Shown here piece by piece: positions 1,243 to 29,045 of a stretch of DNA of 32,000 bases. The DNA is from Candidatus Methanophagaceae archaeon (GTDB taxonomy: Archaea > Halobacteriota > Syntropharchaeia > Alkanophagales > Methanospirareceae), in NCBI GenBank assembly GCA_003194425.1, contig PQXB01000001.1:160444-192443 (forward strand). Reading direction: 5' to 3'. The notes under the pieces were generated by a model that was not told the origin of the DNA, did not search any database, and saw only the letters and a list, made by a program, of their open reading frames with translations. Position 1 is the stretch's first letter. Each line of letters begins with the position of its first letter. A program made the translations under genes and the position numbers.

Positions 1243-1245
1243 TTT

Positions 1246-1563: not shown

Positions 1564-1678
1564 TTTCCTTCTTCTCTCTCCCTCCTCTCTTCTCCTTTTT
1601 CCCTCCTCTTCTCTACTCCTTCATCCTCTCTTCTCATCTTCAATTTCATTTCTTCCCTCCCCTTTTCTCTCCTGTCTC

Positions 1679-2545: not shown

Positions 2546-2546
2546 T

Positions 2547-3239: not shown

Positions 3240-3309
3240 TTTTCTCGCTCACTTCCTCTCCTTTCTCTCTTCCTCTCCTTTCTCTCTTCTCTCTTTTTCA
3301 TCTTTCATC

Positions 3310-4260
3310 TTACTCTCCTACAAAAGTCCCGTACCTCTTTCTCGCCCATCTCACCAGGACTAAATTCCCGACTATCATCGCTACTCCAATCACCAGTCCA
3401 ACTACGATTCCGATTACCGCTGCAGAGTCTCCAGCTGCGGCTTCTAAGTTCGGCAAATACCTTGCAACCTGCATCCCAACGAGCGTCCTCCAATTCTCGA
3501 AGAGAATTATCACGCCGAAGGTCAGTCCAGTGCAGGGACCGCCGAACTTCGCACAAAACGCCGCAATGTCCTTCTGTGTCCGCACGCCGCAGTCAGCGTA
3601 GCGCGTTATTTTGCCGTGGTAGACTACCCGCTTGCCCTCACCGAAAGGTCTGTCCTGGAACTCTCGCTCGGTGCCGTAGTGAATATCGCCTGTAGACGAC
3701 CCGATTGCCCCGACTGTGATGCCCCAAATAAAAGCGAGCATCGGCAGAGCGAAGGGGTGGTCCAAACCGGGATTTCCCGAGAGCGTCCCAAGATTGCTCT
3801 GAATGTATGCTATCGCCGTAATGCAGAGTGTTGCCATAAATCCATGCGTTGCGATTGGCATTATGTGCCCGTACAAGACATCGAGGTAAATCGGTTGCTC
3901 GAATCGTTTCTGTGCCGTCGTCCTGCCCACGTGCGCCGTTACCGAAAAAATCACATGAACTGCTTCGCCGACCACTGCCCCGATGGGAATCGCGATAATC
4001 GGGTGCGCCCCTTTGGAGAGCAGCACCCACGCGATAACGCCCGCTACGGTGCAGTAGAGTGCGTAGGCCGGTGCCTCACCAGAAATCGCCTTGTTGAAGA
4101 ACCGATGCACTTGTCCTACTTGTGGTGCCAGTTGCACTTGCGAGTTCGGATTGCTCTGTGACCCAACATCAGACTCGAGGTCCTCAAACATGCACGCTAC
4201 CAATGCCAAAAAAACTATCAGCAACATCCACGCAAACAGCATTGCTATTTCTATTGGCAT
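3310..4260 (-). CDS. mtrE: tetrahydromethanopterin S-methyltransferase subunit E
   Basis: 316 aa. EDLESDVGSQSNPNSQVQLAPQ, FNKAISGE, IWGITVGAIGSSTGDIHYG and CAKFGGP are hallmark MtrE motifs. Confidence 0.92.
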   Translation of the reverse strand: MPIEIAMLFAWMLLIVFLALVACMFEDLESDVGSQSNPNSQVQLAPQVGQVHRFFNKAISGEAPAYALYCTVAGVIAWVLLSKGAHPIIAIPIGAVVGEAVHVIFSVTAHVGRTTAQKRFEQPIYLDVLYGHIMPIATHGFMATLCITAIAYIQSNLGTLSGNPGLDHPFALPMLAFIWGITVGAIGSSTGDIHYGTEREFQDRPFGEGKRVVYHGKITRYADCGVRTQKDIAAFCAKFGGPCTGLTFGVIILFENWRTLVGMQVARYLPNLEAAAGDSAAVIGIVVGLVIGVAMIVGNLVLVRWARKRYGTFVGE

Positions 4261-4311: not shown

Positions 4312-5808
4312 TCAAACTTCCAAGCCCTCCAGAATCTCTGCGAATTTCCTGTCCGCGTTCCTCTTTTTCAGCTTTGCGAGCTTCACAATCTCGCTCTTGT
4401 CCACTCCAAATTCTCCCCCGCGAACGAACTCGGTCGCGTCCAAAAGCCGCTTCCCCACCCGAGACCGCACGACAACCGTCGAAAAGCCGTCTGGACTCCC
4501 GACCGAGCCGACCGAGATGTCTGCGAGCCGCGAGACGAAGTCGTCGCAGTAGGGACAGCCCTCCCGCACAACTCCCTCCAACTCCCGCACGTCGCAGGAA
4601 AAAACCTCTCCGTCCGCTGCGGTGACGATGAACTTCCCTTTTGTAATTTGCGTCTTCTCTGCGCGGTCGAGGTCAACGCCGAACCGCCGCCTCGTCTCCT
4701 CCTTCAGACCCTCGTAGTCAAAACTCTCAAGGCAGAACAAGCCCAGCACCGTGATTTCTGCCCCCGGGAATTCTCGTTCCAATTTCCGTACCGCTCTGAC
4801 CTCGCAGGGCGTTCCTACGACCGCAAGTCGCCTCTTGCTCTTGCTCTTACCCCCCTTTTCTTCCTCTTCCAACGCTCCTTCTTTCAACGCAGCCGCAATC
4901 TTTGAAACCATCGGGACACGCAGGTATTTCGTCCCGCTCGCGCTTCTCACCCCTGCCGCGTCCTCAACCACGACCGCCTCTGCCTTGTAGCCCTCTCCCC
5001 GCTGCACCACGACCGCGCTGTCAAAAAAACCGTTCTCCAGCCCTGCGACGAGCAGAGCCGAGACCATTCCTCCGTCCTGCCCTTGCACAACTGAACTCTT
5101 AGCCGCGACCAAATCGCTGTAAACGCCCAGTGCCTCGTCTCGCTTACTCCCTGCCCCTAAATCCAAGAACCTGTTTTCAATTTCCCGCTCGTCCTCCGCG
5201 GTCGTCGGAAAAATATTCTTCGCCAATTTTATCGCTTCTGTGGGGCAGACGAGAGCACACGAGCCACAACCCACGCAGTCGTCGGAGGGCTCTTTGTACG
5301 GCGTGCCGACCTCCCGCTCCACGCCACGACCCAGAACATTTATCGCCGAGACGCCGACCAACTCCTCGCAGACCCGCGTGCACAACCCGCAGAGAATGCA
5401 GTGCTCCTCTGCTTCGTCCTTTTTCGCTGCCAACTCCAGCCTGAATCTCGGCTTCCCCTCTCCCTCTCTCACCCCGTACTCCCTCGCCAGACTTTGAATT
5501 CTGCCCTCCCCAGGACACCTCGCGAGCAGCAGTTCCAGGAGCATTTTCCTTACTTCGACGACCTCTGGAGATTTGGTCTTTACCACCAGCCCCTCCTCGG
5601 CAGGGTAGTTGCAGGCGGTGACAATTTTCTTCCTGCCTCTCCCTCCTCGCCACTCAATCTCAACCGAGCAGAGCCGACAAGCGCCAAACGGCTCCAACGC
5701 GGGGTGGTAGCACAAAGTCGGAATTTCAATGCCAACGCTTCTCGCCGCGTCCAATAAGGTAGCTCCTTCCTCTATTTCCACTACCTCCCCGTCAATTTCT
5801 AATTTCAT
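4312..5808 (-). CDS. fusion protein: N-terminal NuoG/HydA-type [2Fe-2S] plus 2x[4Fe-4S] ferredoxin domains, C-terminal FrhB/FdhB-type F420-binding domain
   Basis: 498 aa. The N-terminus MKLEIDGEVVEIEEGATLLDAARSVGIEIPTLCYHP...GACRLC resembles the 2Fe-2S domain of NuoG/HydA. It is followed by CILCGLCTRVCEE and CVGCGSCALVCP. The C-terminal half has GQDGGMVSALL, VVGTPCEVRAVRKL, LGLFCLESF and CPYCDDF..LADISVGSVG, as in the FrhB_FdhB N and C domains. The ATG overlaps the upstream stop (ATGA). Confidence 0.8.
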   Translation of the reverse strand: MKLEIDGEVVEIEEGATLLDAARSVGIEIPTLCYHPALEPFGACRLCSVEIEWRGGRGRKKIVTACNYPAEEGLVVKTKSPEVVEVRKMLLELLLARCPGEGRIQSLAREYGVREGEGKPRFRLELAAKKDEAEEHCILCGLCTRVCEELVGVSAINVLGRGVEREVGTPYKEPSDDCVGCGSCALVCPTEAIKLAKNIFPTTAEDEREIENRFLDLGAGSKRDEALGVYSDLVAAKSSVVQGQDGGMVSALLVAGLENGFFDSAVVVQRGEGYKAEAVVVEDAAGVRSASGTKYLRVPMVSKIAAALKEGALEEEEKGGKSKSKRRLAVVGTPCEVRAVRKLEREFPGAEITVLGLFCLESFDYEGLKEETRRRFGVDLDRAEKTQITKGKFIVTAADGEVFSCDVRELEGVVREGCPYCDDFVSRLADISVGSVGSPDGFSTVVVRSRVGKRLLDATEFVRGGEFGVDKSEIVKLAKLKKRNADRKFAEILEGLEV

Positions 5809-7757
5809 CTTCTTCTCTCACCTCCACTCCGCACCTTTCTCCTTTCTATTTCCCGCTCCGCTTCAGGCACCGGCGGAGGAACCGGCACGCCAGAAATCTT
5901 CTTCACCGCCCTCACCTTCGGCGGACAAACATCAAAACAAATCCCGCACTTTACGCACTTACTCTGGTCAATTACGTGCACTTTTTTCTTCCCGCCCGAA
6001 ATCGCACCCTCAGGGCAGTTCTTCAGGCAAAGCAGACAAGCAACGCACTTCTCCGGCTCGATGTAGTACGAAATCAAGTCCTTACAAAACAACGCAGGAC
6101 ATCTCTTCTCCGCGATGTGCGCCTCGTACTCGTCCCTAAAGTAGCGGAGCGTGCTCAAGACCGGGTTCGCCGCGGTCGTCCCCAGAGCGCAGAGTGACGC
6201 CTTTTTCATCACCTCTCCAATCTCCTCGAGCATTTCAATGTCGCCCTCCTTCCCCCTACCCGCCACGACACCCTCCAAAATCTCTCGCATTCTCCTCAAA
6301 CCCTCTCGGCACGGCACGCACTTGCCACACGACTCGTCGCAGAGGAAATCCACGAAGTAGCGCGCCAAATCCACGATGCACGTCTCCTCGTCGATCACGA
6401 TCATTCCGCCCGAGCCCATCATCGAGCCCAGCCTCGTGAGTTCGTCAAAATCAACGGGTGTGTCGAGGAACTGCTCTGGAATTATTCCGCCTGAGGGACC
6501 GCCGGTCTGGACGCTTTTGAACCGTTTTCCGCCGCGAATCCCTCCCCCGATTTTGTAAATAATTTCACGCAGCGTCGTCCCCATCGGGACCTCCACCAAG
6601 CCCGTGTTGTTCACTGTGCCGACGAGCGAGAAGATTTTCGTGCCCTTGCTGCCCTCGGTTCCGATTGAGTTGAACCAGTCCGCGCCTTTGGCGATGATTA
6701 GCGGCACGTTCGCCCAGGTCTCGACATTGTTGAGGTTGCTCGGTTTGTCCCAGACGCCGCTCTCGGAGGTGTGGATGTATTTTGGTCGTGGTTCGCCGAC
6801 TTTTCCCTCGATCGCATTCATCAAGGCACTGGACTCACCGGAGACGAAGGCACCCGCACCCCTGTGCACTTTCACATCGAAATTGAAGCCCGAGCCCAGA
6901 ATATTCTCGCCAAGAAATCCGTACTCCTTCGCCTGCTCGATAGCGACCCCCAGATTTGCGATCGCGATTGGGTATTCCTGTCGCACGTAAACGAAGCCCT
7001 GGTGAGAGCCGATTGCGTAAGCGCCGATTGTCAGCCCCTCGAGGACGCGGTGCGGGTTGCCCTCCATAATTGACCTGTCCATATAAGCACCCGGGTCGCC
7101 CTCGTCGCAGTTTACGATTACATATTTTGGTTCTCCTGCTGCGTTCCGAGTGGTTTCCCACTTCCTGCCAGCGGGAAACCCGCCGCCACCCCTGCCTCGC
7201 AAATTCGCTCTCTTCACCTCTTCCAGCACCTCCTCGGGCGTCTTCTCCTCCAACACCTTCGCTAACGCCTTGTAGCCGCCGAGAGCGAGGTAGTCCTCGA
7301 TTTTCGTCGGGTCGATCCAGAGGTTTCCCTTGAAGACGAGGCGGGTCTGGTGCTTGTAGAACGGAATGTCCTGCTCGTGAACGCTTCGTTCGCCGGTGCT
7401 GGGCTCGGCGTAAAGCAGCCGCTCAATAATCCGCTTCCCTTTTATCGTCTCTGAAACAATTTCCGGCACGTCCTCGGGCGTTACTCCAAGGTAGCAAATC
7501 TCCTCAGGATAAATCACAAGAATCGGACCACGCTCGCAGAACCCGTGGCAGCCCGTCCTCCGAACGCCCACCTGCTCAGTCAGACCTTGCTTCTCCAACT
7601 CCTCCTGAATCGCAGCAGCAACCGCGTCGCTGCCCGTCGCGTGGCACGCCGTCCCAGAGCAGAGCGTGATGAACGGCTTGTTCAAGTCCCGCCCTGCCAC
7701 AATCTTTCTTCTCAACTCCCTCAATTCTTGCCCTGAGTTTAGTCTCGTTCTTGGCAT
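5805..7757 (-). CDS. NuoF/HydB-type flavoprotein subunit (NAD(P)H-binding, FMN, multiple Fe-S clusters)
   Basis: 650 aa. It has an N-terminal thioredoxin-like 2Fe-2S region (CSGTAC...GCHGFCERGP), RGRGGGGFPAGRKWE (FMN/NADH site), CGKCVPCREG (N3-type 4Fe-4S) and a C-terminal 2x4Fe-4S region (CVACLLCLKNCP, CVKCGICFDVCP). Confidence 0.9.
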   Translation of the reverse strand: MPRTRLNSGQELRELRRKIVAGRDLNKPFITLCSGTACHATGSDAVAAAIQEELEKQGLTEQVGVRRTGCHGFCERGPILVIYPEEICYLGVTPEDVPEIVSETIKGKRIIERLLYAEPSTGERSVHEQDIPFYKHQTRLVFKGNLWIDPTKIEDYLALGGYKALAKVLEEKTPEEVLEEVKRANLRGRGGGGFPAGRKWETTRNAAGEPKYVIVNCDEGDPGAYMDRSIMEGNPHRVLEGLTIGAYAIGSHQGFVYVRQEYPIAIANLGVAIEQAKEYGFLGENILGSGFNFDVKVHRGAGAFVSGESSALMNAIEGKVGEPRPKYIHTSESGVWDKPSNLNNVETWANVPLIIAKGADWFNSIGTEGSKGTKIFSLVGTVNNTGLVEVPMGTTLREIIYKIGGGIRGGKRFKSVQTGGPSGGIIPEQFLDTPVDFDELTRLGSMMGSGGMIVIDEETCIVDLARYFVDFLCDESCGKCVPCREGLRRMREILEGVVAGRGKEGDIEMLEEIGEVMKKASLCALGTTAANPVLSTLRYFRDEYEAHIAEKRCPALFCKDLISYYIEPEKCVACLLCLKNCPEGAISGGKKKVHVIDQSKCVKCGICFDVCPPKVRAVKKISGVPVPPPVPEAEREIERRKVRSGGERRR

Positions 7758-16652: not shown

Positions 16653-16910
16653 CAACTTCCTCACGCCGTCTGCCAACCCGTGAGCGTAATTTATGCAGCC
16701 GAAGGCGGTAAAGAAATCCCCTTTTTCAAGGTAGTATTTCGCGTCCTCAAAATATGCCTTCGCAAGGCTCAACACCTCTTCTCTTGCTCCTGCAGCACTC
16801 GCAGCACCTGCAGCACTCGCAGCACCTGCAGCACTCGCAGCACCAAGCGACAACGCTTCAAAAAGTGCGATGTCTTTCTTTATCCTACCCGCTTCTTCGT
16901 TCAACTTCAC
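16614..16910 (-). CDS. DUF357-like small protein
   Basis: 98 aa with a GTG start overlapping the methyltransferase stop (GTGA). AKAYFEDAKYYLEKGDFFTAFGCINYAHGLADG resembles archaeal DUF357. It carries a GAASAA x3 insertion. Confidence 0.55.
   Translation of the reverse strand: MKLNEEAGRIKKDIALFEALSLGAASAAGAASAAGAASAAGAREEVLSLAKAYFEDAKYYLEKGDFFTAFGCINYAHGLADGVRKLSSQPNDKPENRT
16791..16844 (-). repeat. perfect 18-bp x3 tandem repeat inside the DUF357 gene (GAASAA x3)
   Basis: tgcagcactcgcagcacc occurs at 16791, 16809 and 16827. Confidence 0.95.
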
Positions 16911-17896
16911 GATCCTATTTTAAGTTGCCACGTCTTATTTTTCTTCCCATTCTTTTTTATAGCATCTTCCTCTTCCAGACCCTTAAACTCTAACAAGAAT
17001 TCGCGGATCCGCCTCTCCGCCAATTTCACATATTCTTCGCCTGTCTCGTAGCCAACATAATGGCGTCGGGTTTTTATCGCCGCTATTCCCGTCTGCCCGC
17101 TCCCCGCGAAAGGGTCTAAAACAACCTCGCCCTCGAAGGTGTAAAGTTGAATCAGCCTGTAAGGAAGTTCCACAGGGAACGGTGCTGGGTGTCCAACCCT
17201 ACGAGCAGATTCCGCAGGGAACGTCCAAACGCTTTTAGTAAACTCAAGAAACTCCTCCTTTGAGATTGTGCTTTTTCTTCTTCTTTTCTCGTTCTTGCTC
17301 TCTCCTCGGCTAAACCCGCTTTTAGAAAAGACCAAAATATATTCGTGAATGTCCCGCAGCGTGGGATTAGCAGCAGAAAGCCAGCTCCCCCACGCCGTTG
17401 AAGGGCTCGCACTCGCGGCTTTGTTCCAAATGATTTCCCCTCGCATCAAAAACCCTAAACCGAGCAGGTCCTCAAGCACAAAAGCGTGAAGAGGAATGTA
17501 CGGCTTTCTTTCTAAATTCGCGATGTTTACGCAGGCTCTACCGCCGGGCACGAGCACCCTGAAGACCTCTTTCCAAACCGTTCTTAAAAAATTTCTGTAT
17601 TCTTCAAGCGTTAAATTTTCGTCGTATTCTTTGCCCGCGTTGTAGGGCGGCGAAGTGACCATTAAATGAACGCTGTCATCTGGCAACTCGTCCATCTGTT
17701 CGCTCGATTTACAGAAGATTTTATCCAACAACTGCGGTGGAATGCGATTTTCCAGAAATTGCACTTTCTTTTCTTTTTCCCCTGGCAAACTTTCGTATAA
17801 TTTGCTGGCATAAAACGCGGTGGAATTATGATTTATTCGACCGGGCGAGCCAAACGAGCTTGTTTGCGTCCCTCTTTTTCTTTGACTGTTTGTCAT
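16907..17896 (-). CDS. beta-class DNA methyltransferase (SPPY motif; N4-cytosine or N6-adenine), no adjacent endonuclease
   Basis: Motif IV (LMVTSPPYNAGKEY) precedes motif I (VLDPFAGSGQTG), which is the beta-class order. The start is placed at ATG 17896, because the TTG at 17950 sits only a few nt from the TATA box. Confidence 0.85.
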   Translation of the reverse strand: MTNSQRKRGTQTSSFGSPGRINHNSTAFYASKLYESLPGEKEKKVQFLENRIPPQLLDKIFCKSSEQMDELPDDSVHLMVTSPPYNAGKEYDENLTLEEYRNFLRTVWKEVFRVLVPGGRACVNIANLERKPYIPLHAFVLEDLLGLGFLMRGEIIWNKAASASPSTAWGSWLSAANPTLRDIHEYILVFSKSGFSRGESKNEKRRRKSTISKEEFLEFTKSVWTFPAESARRVGHPAPFPVELPYRLIQLYTFEGEVVLDPFAGSGQTGIAAIKTRRHYVGYETGEEYVKLAERRIREFLLEFKGLEEEDAIKKNGKKNKTWQLKIGS

Positions 17897-17953
17897 TGTA
17901 TAATAAAGAGGATTTTGAAAAACCCCCGAAAACGAGTGAAAATGCCACAAAAG

Positions 17954-17961: not shown

Positions 17962-18097
17962 GAAGAGAGTGTTACGAGGAGTAAATCAAAATCCTCTAAA
18001 GTAAAATATTTCGCAGTCTTGAAATTTCCAAAAGGGGATTTTTGACGAAGCGGTGAAGCGTAGCGAAACCAAATACGCTCTGTTATACGCTGTGTCT

Positions 18098-18286
18098 TTA
18101 TTGGACTTTCTTAACTTGCTTCCCCAACAATTTGATATATTCAAGAAAACTTAACCCTTCGAATTCCGCTTCCTTAGCAATAATTTTCCTCGCGATATGA
18201 ACTTGCTGTAAAGCCGGGTCGTCTGGGAACTCCGCTTCCACCGCTCTTCTTATTTCCTCAATATCCTTCTCTTTGACCTTGCTCAT
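18098..18286 (-). CDS. small alpha-helical hypothetical protein downstream of the PIN gene (possible TA partner)
   Basis: 62 aa, charged, with a 15-nt gap after the PIN stop. I recognised no family. Confidence 0.4.
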   Translation of the reverse strand: MSKVKEKDIEEIRRAVEAEFPDDPALQQVHIARKIIAKEAEFEGLSFLEYIKLLGKQVKKVQ

Positions 18287-18301
18287 ATTTTCCCCCCCTT
18301 C

Positions 18302-18766
18302 CTATAACAATTCCGCAGGTGTCATAATCTCTATTTGCCTCAGGTTATTTAAAGTATTTACCCTCCTCACTCTGTCTCTCGTTTTTCTCCTTACAATGTG
18401 CCTAAAGTTCCAACTCAAAAGACAGTCTATCTCGTTTATCGCTGCGATAGCAATATGGTAGGCATCTTCAGGGTAACCCGCGGGAACTGCGTCATAGCGA
18501 ATATATTCGCTCGCTACCCTTTCAACGTCGTCAGTTAAAGCGAGGAGTGAAAATTGCGCGACTGCATCCTTCATTTTGCTTCGGAGTTCTATGTCTGGGG
18601 TTCGTTCAATCTCGGCAACCGTAATTTCGGAGATGAAAGTCTCAAAGTTACCTTTTTCCGCGAAAAAAGATTCTGTGAGCGATTTCCTCTCCGGATTCCG
18701 CTCATCAAACCGTGCTGAAATTACTGAGGTGTCTAAATACACTTTCCCTCTTCTTCTCAGTTTCAC
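18302..18766 (-). CDS. PIN-domain protein (VapC-like ribonuclease toxin)
   Basis: 154 aa. VYLDTSV (N-terminal Asp), SEITVAEIE, EDAYHIAIAA and LLSWNFRHI are arranged as in PIN domains. Confidence 0.75.
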   Translation of the reverse strand: MKLRRRGKVYLDTSVISARFDERNPERKSLTESFFAEKGNFETFISEITVAEIERTPDIELRSKMKDAVAQFSLLALTDDVERVASEYIRYDAVPAGYPEDAYHIAIAAINEIDCLLSWNFRHIVRRKTRDRVRRVNTLNNLRQIEIMTPAELL

Positions 18767-18835
18767 TTTCCTTTACCTCTTAGGCATTGCATAACTTCGG
18801 TATCCACTCGAGTTCACACATCCTCAAAATAAGTT

Positions 18836-19144
18836 TTATAGTCCCGTTGCATATTTTACACTCCCTAAAAGGTACGGACGAAGTCCGGGTTTCACCGTCC
18901 CATAAATTACAAGGTCAACCCTGCATTTGAATAAATCCTCAAGGAAAAGTTTTAATTCAATGTAATTGTCAAACGTTTTCTTACTCTTCTCAAATTCCAC
19001 CAGTATGTCTATGTCACTCCCTCTTCTTTGTTCATTTCTTACATACGAGCCAAATAATCCTATCTCTTTAACACCAAATCTTTTTATTATCGCTTTGCTC
19101 TCCTCGATTTTCTTCAATATTTCGTTTTCGTCCGCTGTTATCAT
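18836..19144 (-). CDS. minimal nucleotidyltransferase (MNT/MntA-type)
   Basis: 102 aa. GLFGSYVRNEQRRGSDIDILVEF is the GS-x10-DxD signature. Confidence 0.85.
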   Translation of the reverse strand: MITADENEILKKIEESKAIIKRFGVKEIGLFGSYVRNEQRRGSDIDILVEFEKSKKTFDNYIELKLFLEDLFKCRVDLVIYGTVKPGLRPYLLGSVKYATGL

Positions 19145-19273
19145 TTCTTCTTCACCTCTTTGGCAGAGACGGGCATTTTATAGGGCAAAATGTCCAGAAG
19201 GACAAGCTACTTAAGTGAGCATAGCGTAAACTTGTATTCTTATACTGTGCCACATCTCTTTATTAACCATAAC

Positions 19274-21106
19274 CTATGTGCGATCGATACACGTATATCT
19301 AAATTTCTTTTTTACATTCCACACTTTCACTACTGCCCATGTTAAGGCAAGGAACCATGCACTTGGTGAGATTATCTTAGCAAGGATAGCTGAGATAATA
19401 CACACAACAATAAAGAGCCCTATTTCGCCACCCATTAAGAATTGTTTTTCTTTTTCGACCTTGGATTTACACATAGCAATTATTTCATTCTCCTTAATTT
19501 CATTCTCCTTATCCCTCTCCTTGTTTTTTACATCTGACTCAACAACACCTAACGCTTTTTTAATTTTGCCAACTTCTGTTAGACATTGATCTTCACGTTT
19601 TTTGTCTTCTGCTATATTAAACACCTTGCTAAGTGATTCTAAACAATTTACTAATGTAATACTATCGCCGCATTGCTTAGCATAGCCACCAGCTACAAAC
19701 AATCTTTTCTGAGCTAAATCCATTCTACCTTTCCTTAGATAGCATAGCCCCGCAGCGTAGCTGGAAAGTCCAAGACAATAGGGGTCATAGGTTTTTCCAG
19801 AAAGCCATGAAGTCCAGAACAGAGGATCATTCCCCCTCCACTCCCACTCACCCGGAATCTTGGCAACCATCATGCTGAGGCACTCGATTACCTCCCTATG
19901 CCGTCCCATATTCATATACCGATCTGCGGTTTTTAATAAGGATTCAAGTGCTTTTTCATACTCTTTTAGAACAATCAGCGCAAGCCCATGATTCTTTAGT
20001 GCCTTAGTAACAAGCCATGGATCATCACTTCCACGGATGATCTTATCTGACTGTGCTGCAATAAAAGTAGCTTCCTCCTTTGATGGGTCAAGAAGAATTA
20101 TTTCAGAAAAGAAGTTCTTCCATGCCATTTCATTGATACCCGAAGCCCACCTGAGTAGGAATTTATTTTGGCGAGTTTTCATTTTATCTTCTTTACCCTG
20201 ATCATATTTTTCGTCGGCGTCTTTATCTAAGAGTCTTGCAAAAATACTCTTTTGGTCCGCGCCTACTAATTTACAATTAGGGCATTCGCGACCAAAAGCT
20301 TTGATGTTACCTGTTAGGCTGACCTCATTATTCCGCAGCACCCAATAAACACCCTTCGCCGTTTTGGCAGTGCTTAGGATTACTGGAAAAATATCATCGT
20401 CGTTGCCACTGTATCCTACAATTAAAACGGTGTAGGATCTAAAGACGACACGAAGAAGGTCTGAAAGATCTTTTTTTAGATTAAGTCCTGCCAGTCTAAG
20501 AGTAAATATTATGCTTGCTTTTTCGTCTAAAGTGCCATGAAGCTTAACTACGGGCAGGTGTGACTCGTCTGACCCCTTATTATTCAAGGAGTTTAACAAG
20601 CCTTGACGCACAGAATTCACATAAAGTTTGTATTTATTAAGGCTTACTTTCTCTAATGCTTTCTCTATATATGTATCAAAATTCGTTGTTAGGACAATTG
20701 GTATCTTATATTCACGAGCGATATATGCGATATTGGAGTGGTTGCAATTGGGTATGCCCATATTCAAAATATCTATAAAACCAAAGAAATTCTCTCGAAG
20801 ATTACTATGCAAAATTTGACAGAACAATTCAGGTTTTATTCTTTTTGTACGACAATTAATAAAACTGTGGAAGTCATCAAGTCCGCTGTGTGCACTTTTT
20901 GCGGAATCTATTACAAGATCCATTAGCTCCTTCGAGAGTGGACAAGAGGAAGGAGGATCCTTAGAAATCCCCGCACCCACAAAGATAACAAGTTCATTCG
21001 ACTTTGCTTTTTTAAGCTCTTGAACAGCACTCTCAAGATCAACCAACTCTCTTAATTCATTTTTTACCATATCTTGCCTTTGACAATTATCTTTTTCTTT
21101 AATCAT
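19274..21106 (-). CDS. SIR2-family (SIR2_2/defence NADase-type) protein with helical-repeat (TPR-like) middle region and C-terminal TM hairpin
   Basis: 610 aa. Motifs are VIFVGAGIS, IVLTTNFDTYIEKAL (Asn), VVKLHGTL (His) and LIVGYSGNDDDI. The helical-repeat region spans roughly residues 330-520. There is no Walker A motif. The C-terminus IGLFIVVCIISAILAKII...AWFLALTWAVVKVW forms two TM segments. The ATG overlaps the upstream stop (ATGA). Confidence 0.8.
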   Translation of the reverse strand: MIKEKDNCQRQDMVKNELRELVDLESAVQELKKAKSNELVIFVGAGISKDPPSSCPLSKELMDLVIDSAKSAHSGLDDFHSFINCRTKRIKPELFCQILHSNLRENFFGFIDILNMGIPNCNHSNIAYIAREYKIPIVLTTNFDTYIEKALEKVSLNKYKLYVNSVRQGLLNSLNNKGSDESHLPVVKLHGTLDEKASIIFTLRLAGLNLKKDLSDLLRVVFRSYTVLIVGYSGNDDDIFPVILSTAKTAKGVYWVLRNNEVSLTGNIKAFGRECPNCKLVGADQKSIFARLLDKDADEKYDQGKEDKMKTRQNKFLLRWASGINEMAWKNFFSEIILLDPSKEEATFIAAQSDKIIRGSDDPWLVTKALKNHGLALIVLKEYEKALESLLKTADRYMNMGRHREVIECLSMMVAKIPGEWEWRGNDPLFWTSWLSGKTYDPYCLGLSSYAAGLCYLRKGRMDLAQKRLFVAGGYAKQCGDSITLVNCLESLSKVFNIAEDKKREDQCLTEVGKIKKALGVVESDVKNKERDKENEIKENEIIAMCKSKVEKEKQFLMGGEIGLFIVVCIISAILAKIISPSAWFLALTWAVVKVWNVKKKFRYTCIDRT

Positions 21107-22182
21107 AGATAGCCTCTATCGAATATAGCAGCAGTAGGAATTCTTTTACGCACTTCGGACAGAAGGATTTTTTCATCACGCTTTGACAGGGTCGAGGTAT
21201 TGTATGCCCACCTAAGTCCGTTTTTTGAATATAAAACCAGAAGCCTGTCAGTTCCAGAAATAATGTTATGCCTTTCGCGTAGGGTTGCTTTCTCAATATC
21301 TGACCACCGCAAGCCAAATGGCCTGCCTAAACCGGAAATAAAAATTCCTTCATCAAGTAATGTTATCTTTTGTAAATGTACAATAATTGTTTGAAGAATA
21401 AGATAAAGGGAGGATAATCCCCCTAAAACGCCCAAGAGGATACTAATTAATCCTGTTTTTTCATACCTGAACCTGATATAAATCAGTAATAAGGCTGTTA
21501 CAGCGGGGGAAATAGTCCAAATAAATGACCGAATAAACGAACGCATAGTTGGTTTAAAAGTTTGACCCATAATCTTTGGTAGAGCAGGGGGTTGGTGACC
21601 TTTTATGTACTTTACTAATTCTCCTATGGTTGTGCCGTAAGGGAAACTTAGCATAAACAGAAACAGCGATAATTCGCCCAGTAGCTGACCCTCTAAGTTT
21701 ACAAGGCTCCAAATAAAGAGATAAAAAGATGAAGTGAGTAAGGCAATAATTGGAGCTCTTTTGTAGAGATGAAAGCCCATTAGTTCAAACATCAGGCTCA
21801 TCTTATCTGTCCAATCTATATTTTCAGTAAGAAAGATTCTCTCCATTTCGACACCCTTTTCAAGTTCAATCAATTGTGCTGCCCGAAGATTATATTCCTC
21901 ATCCCTTAGCTTAATTCTCTGCGAAAATGTATCGAATGGATTAATAGAAACTCGTGTTGACCGGCCACAAATATAACCTATTGCAAAAGGAATTGCTACT
22001 GTTATTATTCCCAATGGATGAAAAGGTGCCAAAAGAAAAGAGATTATGATGGCTACTAAATGAGGAACTCCAGCACGCCTAATTCTAAATATTTTGAAAA
22101 TGACCCAGAAGAATACAAAACTTACGCACAAAGTGGTGCCTATGACATACAAAAGTGTCATGTTCTCGTTCATGGTAATCAT
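21103..22182 (-). CDS. polytopic membrane protein with a roughly 80-aa soluble C-terminal domain (possibly PH-like)
   Basis: 359 aa with multiple hydrophobic helices. The C-terminal LLDEGIFISGLGRPFGLRWSDIEKATLRE...LLVLYSKNG is reminiscent of bacterial PH-like domains; this is a weak call. Confidence 0.55.
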   Translation of the reverse strand: MITMNENMTLLYVIGTTLCVSFVFFWVIFKIFRIRRAGVPHLVAIIISFLLAPFHPLGIITVAIPFAIGYICGRSTRVSINPFDTFSQRIKLRDEEYNLRAAQLIELEKGVEMERIFLTENIDWTDKMSLMFELMGFHLYKRAPIIALLTSSFYLFIWSLVNLEGQLLGELSLFLFMLSFPYGTTIGELVKYIKGHQPPALPKIMGQTFKPTMRSFIRSFIWTISPAVTALLLIYIRFRYEKTGLISILLGVLGGLSSLYLILQTIIVHLQKITLLDEGIFISGLGRPFGLRWSDIEKATLRERHNIISGTDRLLVLYSKNGLRWAYNTSTLSKRDEKILLSEVRKRIPTAAIFDRGYL

Positions 22183-22188
22183 CTCCTT

Positions 22189-22674
22189 CTATTCTCTTTG
22201 TGCTTTGATAATACTATCGAGAATAATAGAGCAAATTATCCCTCCTGTATACCCTATACTTGGCGCAAGGAGAAAAAAGATAGTGTTGAATTTTAAAATG
22301 CCAATAGCCTCAAGCCATTCTTGGCCGATATCTTTGTTAATGAAGAATGATAATGCGGCAGAAAGAATAGCTATGTTAGCCATAACTATACAAAACCACC
22401 CAATACCAAAGAATTTTGCAGGTGTCAAGATATCAGAACCCATTGCTGAATAAGATAATACGGAAATACTTGAAAATCCGATTCCGAAGATAACGGCAAT
22501 CACAGGATAAATCACCAACAACATTTTCATTTTATTTTCGTACTCTCCGAGGATCTCCCATGAGTTGCTGATTGTACCTTGAAATATTTCCATTGCAATC
22601 CACAATGTTAAGTAGAAAAAGAACAAGTAGCCAAATATAAAGCCGAAGGTTGATGCTTTACTTATTTTTTGCAT
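22189..22674 (-). CDS. small polytopic membrane protein (4-5 TM), no recognised family
   Basis: 161 aa with an ATG start. It overlaps the upstream gene by 13 nt, and AAGGAG lies just before the next ATG. Confidence 0.5.
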   Translation of the reverse strand: MQKISKASTFGFIFGYLFFFYLTLWIAMEIFQGTISNSWEILGEYENKMKMLLVIYPVIAVIFGIGFSSISVLSYSAMGSDILTPAKFFGIGWFCIVMANIAILSAALSFFINKDIGQEWLEAIGILKFNTIFFLLAPSIGYTGGIICSIILDSIIKAQRE

Positions 22675-23498
22675 TCTGATTCATCTGCCTTTGAGCTTTT
22701 AATCTGTTTGATTTCATCCAGCATACTTTCTGTTAGTTTTATGTCTTCATATTTTCCTATTTCTCTGTCTATATAAAGACTACGTTCATATTTCTCTTTC
22801 GCCATCTCATATTTTCCCTGAATATGCTCTATTTCGGCGAGCCTAAAGATAGCACCGCTTATGACAGAAAGTATTTCATGGTTGTTTGGTGACTTGCTGT
22901 TCAGTGATTCCGCAATCACAAGTGCCTTTTCTACTGCCCCGGCTGCTTTGTCTAAATACTGCTGCTGACGATACAGAAGCGACAACTGATAATAAACAGC
23001 TACAACGTTTAATTCATGGCAGATAGATTCCGCATCTGTTTCAGACTTACTCGTAAGACGCTTCTGAATTTCGAGAGCTTGGAGATATAAGAACTCCGCC
23101 TTTTTCAACCTATTATTATTCCGAAGCTCTTCAATGAATTTTTTGGATCTTGGATTGTGCCAGTTTCCGGTGTAAGTGGTCTCATGGAGAAACTTGGCAC
23201 GGTTATAGAGACGCTGAGATTTCGGAGTAAGAAATCGAGAGATAAAAAAGACAATTAGTCCACACATAGGAAACGAGATGCTTTCCCAAGAATTGAGGGA
23301 GAATTCCAATTTACCGATTGACTGCCACACCATCATTCCAATAAAGCAAAATAGAGCAAATGTTACTTTTTTGTTTTTCTGACCCTCCAATCCTAACCTT
23401 ATCCAACCTTTCTTCCCAATTTCCCAACCAATCAAAGCATTTGCTATTAATCCCACTACAATAAAGCAATACAGATCGAAAATAAATTGTTGTGTCAT
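22662..23498 (-). CDS. membrane-anchored (3 TM) TPR-repeat protein
   Basis: 278 aa with three N-terminal hydrophobic helices. These are followed by TPR-like helical repeats (AEFLYLQALEIQKRL, VAVYYQLSLLYRQQQYLDKAAGAVEKAL, GKYEMAKEKYERSLYI). Confidence 0.6.
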   Translation of the reverse strand: MTQQFIFDLYCFIVVGLIANALIGWEIGKKGWIRLGLEGQKNKKVTFALFCFIGMMVWQSIGKLEFSLNSWESISFPMCGLIVFFISRFLTPKSQRLYNRAKFLHETTYTGNWHNPRSKKFIEELRNNNRLKKAEFLYLQALEIQKRLTSKSETDAESICHELNVVAVYYQLSLLYRQQQYLDKAAGAVEKALVIAESLNSKSPNNHEILSVISGAIFRLAEIEHIQGKYEMAKEKYERSLYIDREIGKYEDIKLTESMLDEIKQIKSSKADESECKK

Positions 23499-23537
23499 TT
23501 TTTTATGTTATTTCCAAACTTGAGCTCGCACACACTT

Positions 23538-25796
23538 TTATTTATCATCAGAACCCTTCTCTGTTACCAACCTCGGCACGAGCGTCGAGTACCGCCCCAA
23601 CTGAATCCCGTATTTTTTGTTGTACTCTGCCATTTCCATCAGTTCGCCAGACCTGTGCCTCGCCCGTTTTATCCGCATTCCCTCAATCTCCCACCCGTGC
23701 TCCTCCTTCAACTTCCGCAGCAACTCCGCCCGCCGCATCACATGCAACTCCTGCTCGGACCGCACGAACAAGTGCCAGTCGTCTGAATATTCGCCAAAGA
23801 AATTTTTGTAAGCCTCGTTCTCCGCCTCCAGACTCGCAAGCCTGGGGTCTCGCAAGGCAAGCGGGCGGTGCAGCAGTTTCGCACTCATCGCGATCGCCTC
23901 CTCCTTCGTCTCCACCGGCACGAGCATGTGCACTGGACACGGTTCGACCTCCTTCTTCTCACCCGTCACACCGTCGTACATCCACCACTTGCTCCTGTCG
24001 TTTTTGTCGCCCAGGAAGAACCGCTTGAAGTTGCTTGAACACGAAGGTGAACACGAAGGTGAACACGAAGGTGAACACGAAGGACCGACGACGACAGGAA
24101 TGCCCGACCTGACGAGACCCGACGCAACCGCGAACATCGTCTCCGTCCACGCACCCCAAATTATCGCGACCACGGGCAGCCGAGCGTAGAGGTAGTCGGC
24201 AATCTGCGTCCAGTTCGCTTTCGGCACGTAGCCACTCCCAACCAACGCACCGCGGTAGACCGCAGCAGGAACGTGCGAAATCGCAGTGCAGCCCCCGAAA
24301 TTCACCAACCCCTTCAGCACTCCAGCCGCGATGTACTGCTCGAACAAGAACTTCCGCCCCCCTTCCTCCTCGTCAAAATACTTCGCAACGTCCGCAGCAA
24401 CGCAGCCCGAAACCGTGACAAGAGCGTTCCGCTCCAGAAAATACCTCGCAATTTCCGCTACTTCTTTCCCGTTCCCTGAACCCTCGCAGTCTCCGCGGTC
24501 TCCACAGCCCAGAATATTTATCATTCCCGGCCCGTTCCCGCCTAAAATAATCCCGAAGGTCAGGTCCCGCCACTCCAACTCCGACATCGGACCCCGCCCA
24601 GCCCGCATAAGAAACTTGTCTTGCTTTATTTTACCTTTTTTCTTTGGTATTTTTTTCACCCCCACCACCAGCCGAACAGCGAGTTCGCCCGCCTTCTCTG
24701 GACCAGAAATTCGCACGCCCGGCAGGTCCTTCTCCAACACCTCGCTGACCAAATCCTGCACCGTCTTCGCTGACCTCTCCTCTAACTCCAAATCCAACCC
24801 GCAGGCGACCACCTTCGCACCCACCCGCTTCGCCTCCTCTAAAACATCAAGCTCAAAGCACAATTCTCCGCTGACCACGACCACATCGGGAATGCCTGCT
24901 CTGAAAACCTCCCTCGCCTTCACCGCCGACGCGAGAACCTTTCCGCGTTTGTAAAATCTTGGAATGTCGTGCCCCACCGCACCGACGCCGCAAATTTCTA
25001 CCGCCTCCTCCAATCCCGCTCCCGACCTTCTCAAATACTCAACCGCGAACCACGCCGGCAAGAAATCGCTGCCAAGAAAGACCACAACCGGCTTGCTCGT
25101 GTCAGCCGCACCGAGACCAACTTCGGTCTCGACCGGCGGGAAGTCAGTGTACTCGGTCGCAGGACGCGTGCCTGCGTTGTAGAACCCGAAGCAGCACATT
25201 TTTAGCGTCTCTGCAATTTCCATCGCGAGAAATGTAAGCGAGCCCGCGTGCAACGCCTTCTCTTCAAATTCCTCCGCACTCTCTCCGCCCTGTTCTTGAG
25301 CGAGAAGCAATTTTGAGAGCTGCGATTCCGCGTAGCACAACGCCCTCTCCGCCTCGCCCAAATCTTTCGTGTAAAACCCGGTCAGCAGTGAGGTGTTCAT
25401 TGAGGGGTAGGTAACTGACTTCCCAATCTCAAGTTCCTTCTCTCGCCCAAACCGTTCTACCGAAAAATCAAGCAGACGCCTCGCAACCCCCAACTGCCGA
25501 GACAGCCCTTTACAAGCCTCCTGCAAACTCTGCCTCGCTTGCTTCGCCTGCTCTTCCTTTTTCAGCTTTTCTTCCTTTTTCAGATTTAGTTCGGCGTTCG
25601 CGTAGACCGCGGGGTACCTGTTCAGAAGCACGCTGTCCCACTCTTCGATGTCCGCAGCGTCTGCAAAAATGTTCAACCTCGGCTTCCACTGTTCCAGCTG
25701 TCCTCGCTCGCCCATTTCCCTGAGTATTTCGCGGGCGATTCGTTCCTTCTCTTTCTCTTTCTCCTTCTCTTCCCCCTTCCCCTTCTCTTCCTCCAC
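23538..25796 (-). CDS. CdhA-like protein (CO dehydrogenase/acetyl-CoA decarbonylase-synthase alpha family), apparently degenerate
   Basis: 752 aa. As I recall CdhA, it is collinear: LLNRYPAV, LMRAGRGPMSE, INILGCG, TVSGCVAADV, NFGGCTAISH, DWHLFVRSEQEL and LLRKLKEEHGWEIEG. The N-terminal Cys cluster and the internal 2x4Fe-4S insert are absent. Confidence 0.7.
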   Translation of the reverse strand: MEEEKGKGEEKEKEKEKERIAREILREMGERGQLEQWKPRLNIFADAADIEEWDSVLLNRYPAVYANAELNLKKEEKLKKEEQAKQARQSLQEACKGLSRQLGVARRLLDFSVERFGREKELEIGKSVTYPSMNTSLLTGFYTKDLGEAERALCYAESQLSKLLLAQEQGGESAEEFEEKALHAGSLTFLAMEIAETLKMCCFGFYNAGTRPATEYTDFPPVETEVGLGAADTSKPVVVFLGSDFLPAWFAVEYLRRSGAGLEEAVEICGVGAVGHDIPRFYKRGKVLASAVKAREVFRAGIPDVVVVSGELCFELDVLEEAKRVGAKVVACGLDLELEERSAKTVQDLVSEVLEKDLPGVRISGPEKAGELAVRLVVGVKKIPKKKGKIKQDKFLMRAGRGPMSELEWRDLTFGIILGGNGPGMINILGCGDRGDCEGSGNGKEVAEIARYFLERNALVTVSGCVAADVAKYFDEEEGGRKFLFEQYIAAGVLKGLVNFGGCTAISHVPAAVYRGALVGSGYVPKANWTQIADYLYARLPVVAIIWGAWTETMFAVASGLVRSGIPVVVGPSCSPSCSPSCSPSCSSNFKRFFLGDKNDRSKWWMYDGVTGEKKEVEPCPVHMLVPVETKEEAIAMSAKLLHRPLALRDPRLASLEAENEAYKNFFGEYSDDWHLFVRSEQELHVMRRAELLRKLKEEHGWEIEGMRIKRARHRSGELMEMAEYNKKYGIQLGRYSTLVPRLVTEKGSDDK
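24037..24084 (-). repeat. 12-bp x4 tandem repeat inside the CdhA-like gene (PSCS x4)
   Basis: gaacacgaaggt occurs at 24037, 24049, 24061 and 24073. The last base of the fourth unit differs. Confidence 0.95.
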
Positions 25797-27381: not shown

Positions 27382-28242
27382 ATAAAACAGAAATAGGGTC
27401 TGCAACTGCGAAGGGAGGATTTGTAAATGAAAAGAGTATTTGCAAGAAGTTTAACAGTTGGAAAAAGGATAAAGAGGCTCAAATTTGGCTCAGGATTATG
27501 GGATATAAAGTAGAAAAGATTGATTCTGTAGAAGCAATTCAAATTCCAACCAGAATTAAGAAGAGTGAAATAGAAAAATTTGGGATAAGCGAAGAGGATT
27601 TTGAGGGTTAGCGAAGAGGATTTTGAGGGTTTGATGCGATTCAAGAAAGCCGACGCTCAGATAAGAATTGTCATTACTATCGGCGAGATTTTGAAGGTAG
27701 AGAATTTGTCTTTAAAGAAGGCTAATTCTGACGCAGATTATAATCAGGTGGATAAGCGGAGGGTTGATTCGTATCAAAAGATGTGGAGTTTTGACGACGA
27801 AATAGCCTACTGGTTAAAGCTTTTCACGGGTGAGAACAATCCTAAATCGTTTGCTAAACTCGTGGGTGAAGTTGAATTGAGAGACAAAAGGAGGTTATTT
27901 TTTGATGAAATGCCTGAGGAGATTTGGACTAAAATTATAACATTTTTTGAAGAAAATAGGATAATTGTTGTTAGCGATATTTTAAAGGGGCGAGGCGGAC
28001 TTTCAGCCAACTGGATGCTGGTCACGAGGTACAACAAAAATGAGGAGACTACTACTTGGACACTCAAAGATATTAACACCGTTATGAATTTCTTTGGTGG
28101 GGGGGAGGTAAAAATATCGCCGAGAGGAAGTTTGTATTTAGGTAAAATCACAATGCAGAGAAAAGGCGGAACTCCAGACCCTACAAAACTACAGTTCAAG
28201 ATAAAACCCTGTCAGTTGTTTAGCCTGGGGGAACGACAATGA
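27378..28242 (+). pseudogene. type II restriction endonuclease (HinP1I/MspI-like as far as I recall those sequences) disrupted by a 22-bp tandem duplication
   Basis: Track ORFs 27378-27611 and 27601-28242 are in different frames. Both contain SEEDFEG, encoded by the duplicated 22-mer. Removing one copy gives one 280-aa ORF. It is adjacent to, and overlaps (ATGA), a methyltransferase gene. Confidence 0.75.
27587..27630 (+). repeat. perfect 22-bp x2 tandem duplication causing the frameshift in the endonuclease gene
   Basis: agcgaagaggattttgagggtt occurs at 27587-27608 and again at 27609-27630. Confidence 0.95.
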
Positions 28243-29045
28243 AAGGAATGAAAATGGAAGTAGACAAAGTGTATTTAGGCGACTGCGTAAAGATTATGAA
28301 GACTTTACCAAATAAATCTGTAGATTTAGTCTTTGCAGACCCGCCGTTCAACATTGGGCTAAAATACGATGTTTATAACGATAACCTTTCGTATGAAAAA
28401 TATTACAAGTGGTCTGAAGAGTGGGTAAAAGAGGCTTGCAGGCTACTTAAAAACAGTGGGGCAATTTATGTCGCGATCGGAGACGAATTCGCAGCAGAGC
28501 TAAACATAATTCTAAAACGAAGAGGCTTCTATTTCAGAAACTGGATCGTGTGGCACTACACCTTCGGTCAAAATCAGCGGAAGAAATTTACCCGCGCACA
28601 CACTCACATTTTATATTTCACCAAAGACAAAGCACGATTTACATTTAACGACAAGCACATTCGCGTGCCCTCGGCAAGGCAACTCGTCTACAAAGACAAG
28701 CGAGCAAACCCGCTTGGAAAGATTCCCGACGATGTCTGGCAGTTTTCGAGAATTTGCGGAACGTTCAAGGAGCGTCTCGGAAGACACCCTTGCCAAATGC
28801 CAGAATCCTTACTTGAGCGAATAATAAGCGTCAGTTCCAACGAGGGCGACACGGTCTTAGACCCTTTCGGCGGGACAGGGACAACAGCAGCAGTCGCGAA
28901 GAAATTGAAGAGACATTTCATCACGATGGAAATATCCGAAGAATATTACGACATCATCTTGAGAAGGTTGAATTTAAGAAGAGTGAAGAGTGTGTCAGAG
29001 GACGAGGAAGAGGAGCAGAGGACTTTATTTGCGGTTTTAAGATAA
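28239..29045 (+). CDS. beta-class DNA methyltransferase (DPPF motif; N4-cytosine or N6-adenine) of the R-M cassette
   Basis: 268 aa. Motifs are DLVFADPPFNIG (motif IV) followed by VLDPFGGTGTT (motif I). The ATG overlaps the endonuclease stop. Confidence 0.9.
   Translation: MKGMKMEVDKVYLGDCVKIMKTLPNKSVDLVFADPPFNIGLKYDVYNDNLSYEKYYKWSEEWVKEACRLLKNSGAIYVAIGDEFAAELNIILKRRGFYFRNWIVWHYTFGQNQRKKFTRAHTHILYFTKDKARFTFNDKHIRVPSARQLVYKDKRANPLGKIPDDVWQFSRICGTFKERLGRHPCQMPESLLERIISVSSNEGDTVLDPFGGTGTTAAVAKKLKRHFITMEISEEYYDIILRRLNLRRVKSVSEDEEEEQRTLFAVLR

Follow-up and report, generated by a model that had tools for sequence, protein, structure and literature searches.

Within a 32,000-nucleotide (nt) stretch of contig PQXB01000001.1 from a Methanophagaceae (ANME-1) archaeon, hereafter the window, four genes on the minus strand (A to D) form a compact cassette at positions 19274-23498 whose last member encodes a SIR2-domain protein (Table 1). 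An earlier note, made from the letters of the window, had described these as four coupled genes, and both the open reading frames (ORFs) and the three junctions were confirmed: A and B overlap by 13 nt, B and C are joined as TAG-AAGGAG-ATG, and C and D share an ATGA overlap. The sizes proposed for A, B and D likewise stood, but the 359 amino acids (aa) proposed for C probably need a small correction. The AAGGAG hexamer lies 0 nt from the ATG at 22182 and 9 nt from the next in-frame ATG at 22173; because of this spacing, and because independent gene callers choose that codon, the second ATG is more likely to be the start of C, giving a protein of 356 aa. Gene callers also shorten B to 134 aa, but its extra N-terminal hydrophobic helix is kept in homologues and the 161-aa form is therefore right. 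The cassette occupies, together with genes for an MNT nucleotidyltransferase and a PIN protein, an islet of 37-42% guanine plus cytosine (GC) content at ~18.0-23.5 kb, against 52-59% in the flanks and ~55% in the genome, which bears out the AT-rich island that had been noted beside PIN and MNT genes.

Table 1. Coordinates of the cassette, its protein modules and other features of the window (TM, transmembrane)
Feature	Residues	Position (nt)	Strand	Content or basis
Gene A, 278 aa		22662-23498	minus	ORF list; 3 TM + TPR
Gene B, 161 aa		22189-22674	minus	ORF list; 4 TM, without known family
Gene C, 359 aa as first-ATG ORF		21103-22182	minus	~7 TM + C-terminal PH-like domain
Gene D, 610 aa, GenBank PXF51026.1 ("hypothetical protein")		19274-21106	minus	SIR2_2 + TPR-like repeats + C-terminal membrane anchor
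AAGGAG, Shine-Dalgarno-like hexamer between B and C		22183-22188	minus	Sequence read
A, TM part, ~3 N-terminal helices (second weak)	1-91	23226-23498	minus	Hydropathy
A, cytoplasmic TPR domain	~92-278	22665-23225	minus	Pfam
C, N-terminal module: ~5 TM helices + ~65-residue cytoplasmic helical insert with GRST motif	1-198	21589-22182	minus	AlphaFold2
C, C-terminal module: TM hairpin + PH-like domain	199-359	21103-21588	minus	AlphaFold2/Foldseek
C, PH-like domain	~270-355	21118-21375	minus	AlphaFold2
D, SIR2 domain	~21-295	20222-21046	minus	Profile + fold matches
D, TPR-like helical repeats	~303-519	19550-20200	minus	Foldseek
D, C-terminal membrane anchor	~541-603	19298-19486	minus	Hydropathy + AlphaFold2
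Low-GC islet with cassette, MNT and PIN		18000-23537		Composition
MNT nucleotidyltransferase		18836-19144		Downstream of cassette; PADLOC PDC-S09, 2.7e-33
PIN protein		18302-18766		Downstream of cassette; Pfam/PADLOC
Type II-like N6/N4 DNA methylase, orphan		16907-17950	minus	PADLOC MTase_II 7.6e-140; ~46-51% GC, just outside right edge of islet
R.HinP1I-like endonuclease, second islet		27601-28242	plus	PF11463 5e-53
N6/N4 methylase, second islet		28239-29045	plus	1.7e-64

Protein D matches the Pfam family SIR2_2 (PF13289) over residues 137-261 with 58.5 bits against a cut-off of 24.5 (E 1e-15), and the same family was found in all 22 full-length homologues. The SIR2 motifs previously read in D hold up in an alignment of 21 family members reaching down to 30% identity, in which N142, D144, H190 and GYSGxDxD are invariant and GAGxS is nearly so. 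A profile of D compared with the sequences of the PDB placed KomC first (5e-12), followed by FAM118B, the SIR2 of SPARSA, DSR2 and SIR2-HerA; the TTNFD and HG motifs of D align with TTNYD and FHG of KomC, and the entry of the KomC H146N mutant (9xvc) aligns at the same His. When the AlphaFold2 model of D (predicted local distance difference test score, pLDDT, 84; predicted template modelling score, pTM, 0.80) was compared with known structures using Foldseek, the SIR2-APAZ protein of SPARSA (8jl0) was the top match (1.8e-6, 320 aligned columns) and DSR2 the next (3.5e-6), while the middle region (~303-519) matched the TPR proteins LGN and Rap. PADLOC returned only SIR2-domain models of other systems, each over partial length. 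The repeats and the C-terminal TM hairpin had also been foreseen, and here the repeats and a strongly hydrophobic helix at 562-580 (Kyte-Doolittle 2.66) are clear, whereas the second helix of the hairpin is weaker; both helices are kept across the family. A Walker A motif is lacking in D, as the absence of a P-loop had implied, and in A as well; scans with Pfam and PADLOC found no SLOG, Macro, SAVED or CARF domain in D, and Pfam gave no NACHT, NB-ARC or AAA match. Taken together, these comparisons show D to be a predicted enzyme of the SIR2_2 family with both catalytic residues (Asn and His) intact, TPR-like repeats and a membrane anchor, and its nearest relatives appear to be antiviral or related non-canonical SIR2 proteins that process NAD+.

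The remaining three proteins are membrane proteins. The 3TM + TPR architecture proposed for A is supported both by hydropathy and by Pfam TPR models above threshold (TPR_2 at 4e-9, TPR_12 and TPR_8 likewise), and A homologues are present at four other loci (L005, L006, L035 and L071). Its TPR part aligns collinearly with the N-terminal part of the TPR-TIR proteins in a variant described below (profile E 2e-9 to 1e-10; BLASTP 25% over 142 aa, E 2e-6); a relationship to the TPR region of D was considered and rejected, the similarity being generic (hhalign probability 11%). Protein B, expected to have 4-5 TM helices, contains four hydrophobic segments, read as four such helices, and a B homologue (E 2e-20) is retained in a variant that lacks A (L081/L082). 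Protein C is, as had been supposed, polytopic with a soluble, PH-like C-terminal domain. Its AlphaFold2 model comprises ~7 TM helices in all, a beta-sandwich (strands at 272-328) and a capping helix (334-347), and the top ~30 Foldseek matches are PH domains (Rtt106, SSRP1, Pob3, Spt16) with probability 1.0; outside the PH part, Foldseek found no PDB fold match. The protein ends in a conserved tail, FD-x-G-x-L-COOH. In its N-terminal module, S75 and T76 are invariant, and this module also occurs free-standing elsewhere as proteins of 170-205 aa (P0050, P0051, P0055, P0058, P0068). It was further seen at the C-terminus of 400-480-aa proteins and inside very large ones with GDPD, NAGPA, radical-SAM or APH kinase domains; such carriers (P0134, 1754 aa; P0170, 1924 aa; P0141, 1036 aa; P0140; P0153; P0162) may be true fusions or run-on gene models. 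Neither B nor C matched any Pfam or NCBIfam family, A matched generic TPR models only, and C from the window had no Pfam bPH match. None of the three matched an entry of PADLOC-DB v2.0.0 (2023), in agreement with the earlier suggestion of a candidate undescribed system.

The placement of Lys and Arg around the TM segments would put the TPR of A, the PH domain and 65-residue insert of C and the SIR2-TPR part of D on the cytoplasmic side, with an imperfect fit to positive-inside topology at the TM6-TM7 loop of C, which carries three basic residues. With all of these domains probably cytoplasmic, the envelope-level sensing proposed in the earlier note would take place within the membrane or at its inner face and not outside the cell.

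Full-length relatives of D number ~22 among 5.8 billion clustered proteins, all of them metagenomic, and a single intact copy occurs in GTDB representative genomes, in an uncultured archaeon. The family is spread patchily over archaea, with ANME-1 and one more uncultured archaeon, and over contigs that appear to be bacterial. With neighbours judged wherever contigs were long enough, the order A-B-C-D was found in five lineages (L005/L072, L006/L007, L035-37, L071 and the near-identical L001-4/L032) and is kept across independent lineages at 31-62% identity; D itself is 47% identical to the window protein in L005/L072 and 32% in both L006/L007 and L035-37. The identities of C and D to the window covary from locus to locus (61/62, 49/50, 53/49, 49/47, 29/36 and 32/31%), as co-inheritance predicts, and more C-D pairs are evident on shared contigs. 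By these comparisons, A-B-C-D is evidently inherited as a unit.

Not every locus carries all four genes. An archaeal metagenome-assembled genome (MAG) holds C and D alone (L008/L039); L081/L082 combine B, a separate 154-aa protein consisting of the TM hairpin and PH-like domain (hereafter 2TM-PH) and D, without A and without the N-terminal half of C; and in the P0015 contig, whose genes encode 160, 196, 168 and 667 aa, A is missing and C is divided between two genes. D always comes directly after a TM-hairpin plus PH-like module, the C-terminal half of C, and from these variant loci the invariant pair is therefore the 2TM-PH module and the anchored SIR2-TPR protein. The four genes had been expected to co-occur in other genomes; the order does recur in other lineages, but only D and the 2TM-PH half of C form the invariant unit. 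No 2TM-PH neighbour was found beside other SIR2-TPR proteins (L009-L070, 8-10-kb flanks), and the link is therefore specific to the membrane-anchored D subfamily. On plasmids and phages, tblastn with D, C and the PH protein of a CHAT-bearing branch (below) gave no full-length relatives, and IMG/VR yielded only two distant SIR2 matches.

Some of these loci show peculiarities of their own. In three soil contigs from different samples (L035 1757-2846, L036 479-1568, L037 2489-3578) the N-terminus of C stands in another frame through the same apparent frameshift, which could be a population-fixed pseudogene or a programmed frameshift. An apparent natural PH-SIR2 fusion in an Acidobacteriota MAG (CAVWIZ01; L016 8882-11755) was rejected, because frameshifts abound on this contig and one of them, at the PH tail, precedes the read-through; this broken copy of B, 2TM-PH and SIR2 is most likely a long-read assembly error or a product of decay. 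On the unrelated P0015 contig, too, a 340-aa N6_N4 methylase (genes 4352-5374) lies directly beside the split-C cassette, and this may be a coincidence or a recurring link. In L081 the segment directly upstream of B/2TM-PH/SIR2 (581-3320) encodes two further proteins, one a different SIR2-TPR protein of 625 aa and the other, of 196 aa, with a weak match to phosphoribosyltransferases, which could be an NAD-related pair.

Where the surroundings could be read, they are those of defence or mobile elements. In L006 a CBASS operon (cyclase 5.6e-97, NucC 3.6e-108), a fragment of Cas10, serine recombinases and a gene for a TPR-CHAT protein surround the cassette; in L005 McrBC and a PDC-S02/DUF1016 gene directly adjoin it, with a resolvase nearby; and in L071 HTH regulators and an RHS toxin are close by. 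Together with the islet of the window, at least three independent cassette loci are defence or mobile islands. The TPR-CHAT protein of L006 (1002 aa; 4367-7375, minus strand) is divergently oriented and lies ~200 nt from gene A, and may belong to a separate system or be a second effector.

A full HMMER scan of 1.84 billion representative proteins with a profile of C found 136 proteins and showed C to be bipartite, its N-half (positions 4-195) and its C-half each occurring alone and the C-half family (~150 aa, alignment A4) being much the larger. New here is the observation that C is a fusion of two modules, the 2TM-PH half of which also exists as a free-standing family of ~150 aa. Among 30 free-standing 2TM-PH proteins, nine had weak, sub-threshold matches to bPH_6 (best 1.7e-4) and none exceeded the Pfam gathering score; compared with PADLOC, the same 30 gave no consistent match, KwaA appearing once at chance level (E 0.03). 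The family has motifs of its own (KPTxxSF, W..I, RER.N..S.TD.LL and a D-x-P-x-I tail). Most of its members end in D-x-[P/G/A]-x-[I/L/V]-COOH: among 108 sequences extending to the module's end, 83 terminate precisely four residues past the conserved Asp, and the last residue is I, L or V in 84.

In all six sampled 2TM-PH contexts, a TPR-carrying protein or set of proteins bearing SIR2, TIR_2 or CHAT adjoins the module. The SIR2 branch is represented by L081/82, with a B homologue, 2TM-PH and a D homologue. The TIR branch (L073-75) consists of a 5-TM protein, 2TM-PH and, as a convergent gene, a ~885-aa TPR-TIR_2 protein with C-terminal TM helices, with DUF4062 genes and integrases alongside; the same three genes are co-directional in a Micrarchaeota MAG (L083/84). 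The CHAT branch takes two forms, either 2TM-PH with a 1438-aa TM-TPR-CHAT protein (L076) or 2TM-PH with a ~370-aa TM-TPR protein and a 915-aa TPR-CHAT protein, TrbI/CagX genes lying alongside (L077, L080). In the SIR2, TIR and fused CHAT contexts the membrane anchor is part of the effector, while in the other two CHAT contexts the TM part sits on the separate TM-TPR protein. The 5-TM partner of the TIR branch was rejected as a homologue of B or of the N-half of C (hhalign probability 0.2%). In L073 (10831-12243) two DUF4062 genes flank the TIR-branch system; according to a 2026 preprint, DUF4062 proteins are TIR-like NADases of the "Swarozyc" defence system.

These arrangements point to a conserved core of 2TM-PH plus an anchored TPR-effector, of which the SIR2 operon would be one branch and systems with TIR or CHAT the others. 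On a tentative view, possible without being probable, the window holds the SIR2 branch of an unrecognised, cross-domain class of membrane-resident immune systems, in which the 2TM-PH tail docks on a TPR partner, the effector head is interchangeable (SIR2, TIR or the caspase-like protease CHAT) and polytopic partners tune which membrane event is sensed. If such a class exists, its TPR partner might be the membrane-anchored effector or might accompany one, and the tuning partners might be A, B and the N-half of C or, in the TIR branch, the unrelated 5-TM protein.

Among known systems, DSR2 offers the closest parallel in layout, an N-terminal SIR2 NADase followed by all-helical repeats, and probably in logic, with the repeat sensing and SIR2 depleting NAD+. 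DSR2 is, however, a single soluble protein of ~1000-1200 aa (SIR2, MID and a C-terminal solenoid domain, CTD) that binds the phage tail tube, whereas D has 610 aa, TPR-type repeats, a membrane anchor and obligate membrane partners; D reaches only 19 bits with the NCBIfam Dsr2 equivalog NF041819 (cut-off 1400), and the PADLOC Dsr2 model covers only its residues 138-202. Avs5/SIR2-STAND proteins also join a SIR2 effector to a TPR-type sensor and are activated by oligomerisation, but the cassette has no NTPase module (no Walker A, no STAND match) and is multi-gene and membrane-bound. The cassette probably works on the principle of DSR2 or Avs5, in which a repeat region senses and SIR2 is the effector, but belongs to neither. 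KomC of the Kongming system, the best sequence match of the D SIR2 among solved structures, is a stand-alone SIR2 of 264 aa with no TPR and no membrane parts, and is reportedly activated by a modified nucleotide from KomA/KomB; nothing similar to these two turned up near D, although PADLOC-DB v2.0.0 predates the 2025 Kongming paper and no direct sequence comparison was made. SPARSA, the top structural match, is also the source of the best PADLOC models (Aga_SIR2, 2.5e-13), which cover only D residues ~112-261; there is no APAZ/PNTD region, and no Argonaute gene in the window region. Thoeris has a SIR2 NADase effector (type I SIR2-SLOG ThsA) or a membrane-inserted one (type II TM-Macro ThsA), and ThsA models match D weakly (3.5e-7), but no TIR ThsB, SLOG or Macro occurs in A-D or the flanking genes, and in the sister variant TIR is fused to the TPR/TM protein itself. 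SIR2-HerA differs in its ATPase, for which the cassette has neither a gene nor a Walker A motif.

Zorya (ZorAB) and Kiwa (KwaA/KwaB) likewise embody the idea that invasion is sensed by proteins embedded in the membrane, which then license an effector in the cytoplasm; they have no sequence relationship to the cassette and use other effector types. The C-terminal domain of C has the predicted fold of bacterial PH domains (bPH_6, PF10756), and a TM hairpin followed by a PH domain is a common layout among bacterial PH proteins, but 2TM-PH differs from these families in its own motifs and in scoring below Pfam gathering scores. The full-text literature that was searched, including Aravind-lab conflict-system papers, a TIR/Thoeris survey and two modularity screens, contained no description of SIR2 with membrane partners or of a 2TM-PH-TPR-effector class; much subscription literature lay outside this search.

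Given the SIR2_2 match, the conservation of catalytic residues, the operon order, the defence surroundings, the patchy spread and the modularity of the effector, we consider it somewhat probable (roughly 0.55) that the cassette is a membrane-resident antiviral system of the abortive-infection type, acting by NAD+ hydrolysis through the SIR2 domain of D. In the uninfected cell, the PH module and the polytopic partners would hold D in an inactive complex on the cytoplasmic side of the membrane. A virus-dependent membrane cue would then alter this complex; the cue might be a perturbation of the bilayer or of a membrane protein at entry, assembly or egress, or a viral protein caught by the TPR domains, and the change would probably be oligomerisation, as in other defence SIR2s. 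The freed NADase would drain NAD+, and virus production would halt. As a sub-hypothesis, the tail D-x-[P/G/A]-x-[I/L/V]-COOH of the PH module could be a ligand of the partner TPR, bound in the manner of a carboxylate clamp; the constant company of this fixed C-terminal motif and a TPR partner suggests such an interaction.

Several points weigh against this antiviral interpretation. SIR2 domains can also be deacylases or ADP-ribosyltransferases. The D family is very rare, so that context statistics are thin, and some lineages do without the variable elements A, B or the N-half of C, whose roles may be accessory or lineage-specific. The case for PH tail-TPR binding consists of co-occurrence and a conserved terminus. 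The best AlphaFold2 model of C has a pLDDT of 78.5 and the other models only 59-65, and the Foldseek E-values for its PH fold are only ~1e-2. Finally, A-D include no sizeable external domain and hence no pointer to a specific envelope ligand.

The cassette might instead be an addiction module resembling toxin-antitoxin (TA) systems, or a module for another kind of conflict, in which a SIR2 toxin silenced by its membrane partners stabilises the mobile islet or serves competition between cells or plasmids. The TA-type neighbours MNT and PIN in a horizontally acquired low-GC islet would fit, as would the resolvases or recombinases, the RHS toxin and the conjugation genes (TrbI, CagX) beside other copies, and addiction and defence are compatible with each other. 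We nevertheless regard this explanation as unlikely, since TA modules usually comprise two proteins that are small and soluble, a membrane complex of several proteins with TPR and PH resembles a sensor more, and CBASS, Cas10 and McrBC neighbours indicate antiviral islands. Nor does it seem likely that D, instead of depleting NAD+, acts on a membrane partner or a viral protein as a protein ADP-ribosyltransferase, deacylase or signal generator. The fold does support several NAD+-dependent chemistries, D gave weak matches to NCBIfam NAD-dependent deacylases (E 1e-3) and, lower in the fold-match lists, matches to classical sirtuins, and the constant PH partner, with its invariant charged residues (RER...D), could offer a substrate or ligand site. 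But KomC, FAM118B, SPARSA and DSR2, and not deacylases, come first in sequence and fold comparisons, PF13289 is the defence-type branch, and the replacement of SIR2 by TIR or CHAT elsewhere fits interchangeable terminal effectors.

A housekeeping role in membrane stress or envelope homeostasis, in which a PH membrane complex regulates a sirtuin without any part in immunity, appears distinctly improbable. Bacterial PH membrane proteins are widespread and mostly uncharacterised, and all partners of D are membrane proteins without a nucleic-acid or virus-related domain, yet the extremely sporadic spread across domains of life in an islet of atypical GC, the location of the cassette within defence islands, the exchange of the effector for TIR and CHAT, and the decayed or frameshifted copies in some genomes (L016, L035-37) all speak against it and are typical of accessory immune genes. 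Least probable of the four alternatives is signalling of the Thoeris or CBASS kind, with PH or TPR receiving a second messenger made elsewhere and D a mere responder. The CBASS cyclase of L006 does lie ~6 kb from the cassette, but that CBASS has its own effector, NucC; no cyclase, TIR or other signal-producing gene belongs to the conserved SIR2 cassette at any locus; and D has none of the SLOG, Macro, SAVED or CARF domains sought. In its favour, TPR domains have been proposed as receivers of cyclic ADP-ribose (cADPR) in new Thoeris types (10.64898/2025.12.03.692087).

Were the antiviral interpretation right, a SIR2 anchored in the membrane and linked to as many as three membrane proteins of its own would reveal how infection can be detected at the membrane, a poorly understood step. 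Depletion of NAD+ by SIR2 is an established antiviral strategy, and the SIR2 sensors known to us are all soluble (SLOG, helical solenoids, Argonaute, HerA, STAND). If the wider class of membrane-resident immune systems proved real, archaea and bacteria would share a new way of sensing, in which a PH-TPR switch on the inner side of the membrane reports viral entry or egress. Beyond this, the link of the 2TM-PH module to SIR2, TIR and CHAT provides a search handle for related systems and a testable hypothesis of PH tail-TPR binding. The hosts, a methane-oxidising ANME-1 archaeon and, for the sister TIR variant, a member of the Micrarchaeota, are little studied, and to our knowledge few archaeal defence systems beyond CRISPR and restriction-modification have been tested experimentally; the apparent bacterial homologues (L005, L006, L071) make laboratory work feasible.

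Around the cassette, the left edge of the islet is abrupt, 39 nt past the stop codon of a CdhA-like gene, while the right edge is gradual, GC content rising over 17.5-18.5 kb. A search of the islet found no flanking direct or inverted repeats and no tRNA or integrase within it, and a sigma-70 promoter scan is uninformative for an archaeal host. The methylase just beyond the right edge has a signal-peptide peptidase as its neighbour and no adjoining endonuclease. We treat it, together with MNT and PIN, as the context of the cassette.

Upstream of the cassette, the CdhA-like gene (23538-25796, minus strand, 752 aa) encodes a divergent alpha subunit of carbon monoxide dehydrogenase/acetyl-CoA synthase (CODH/ACS), reaching 381 bits with TIGR00314, below the cut-off of 781, and contains perfect 12-nt tandem repeats at 24036-24083 that encode (PSCS)x4; repeats of 9 nt form another, separate run at 16786-16844. 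The window also holds a second low-GC islet (39-43% GC) at 27601-29045 on the plus strand, in which two overlapping genes form a complete type II restriction-modification pair.

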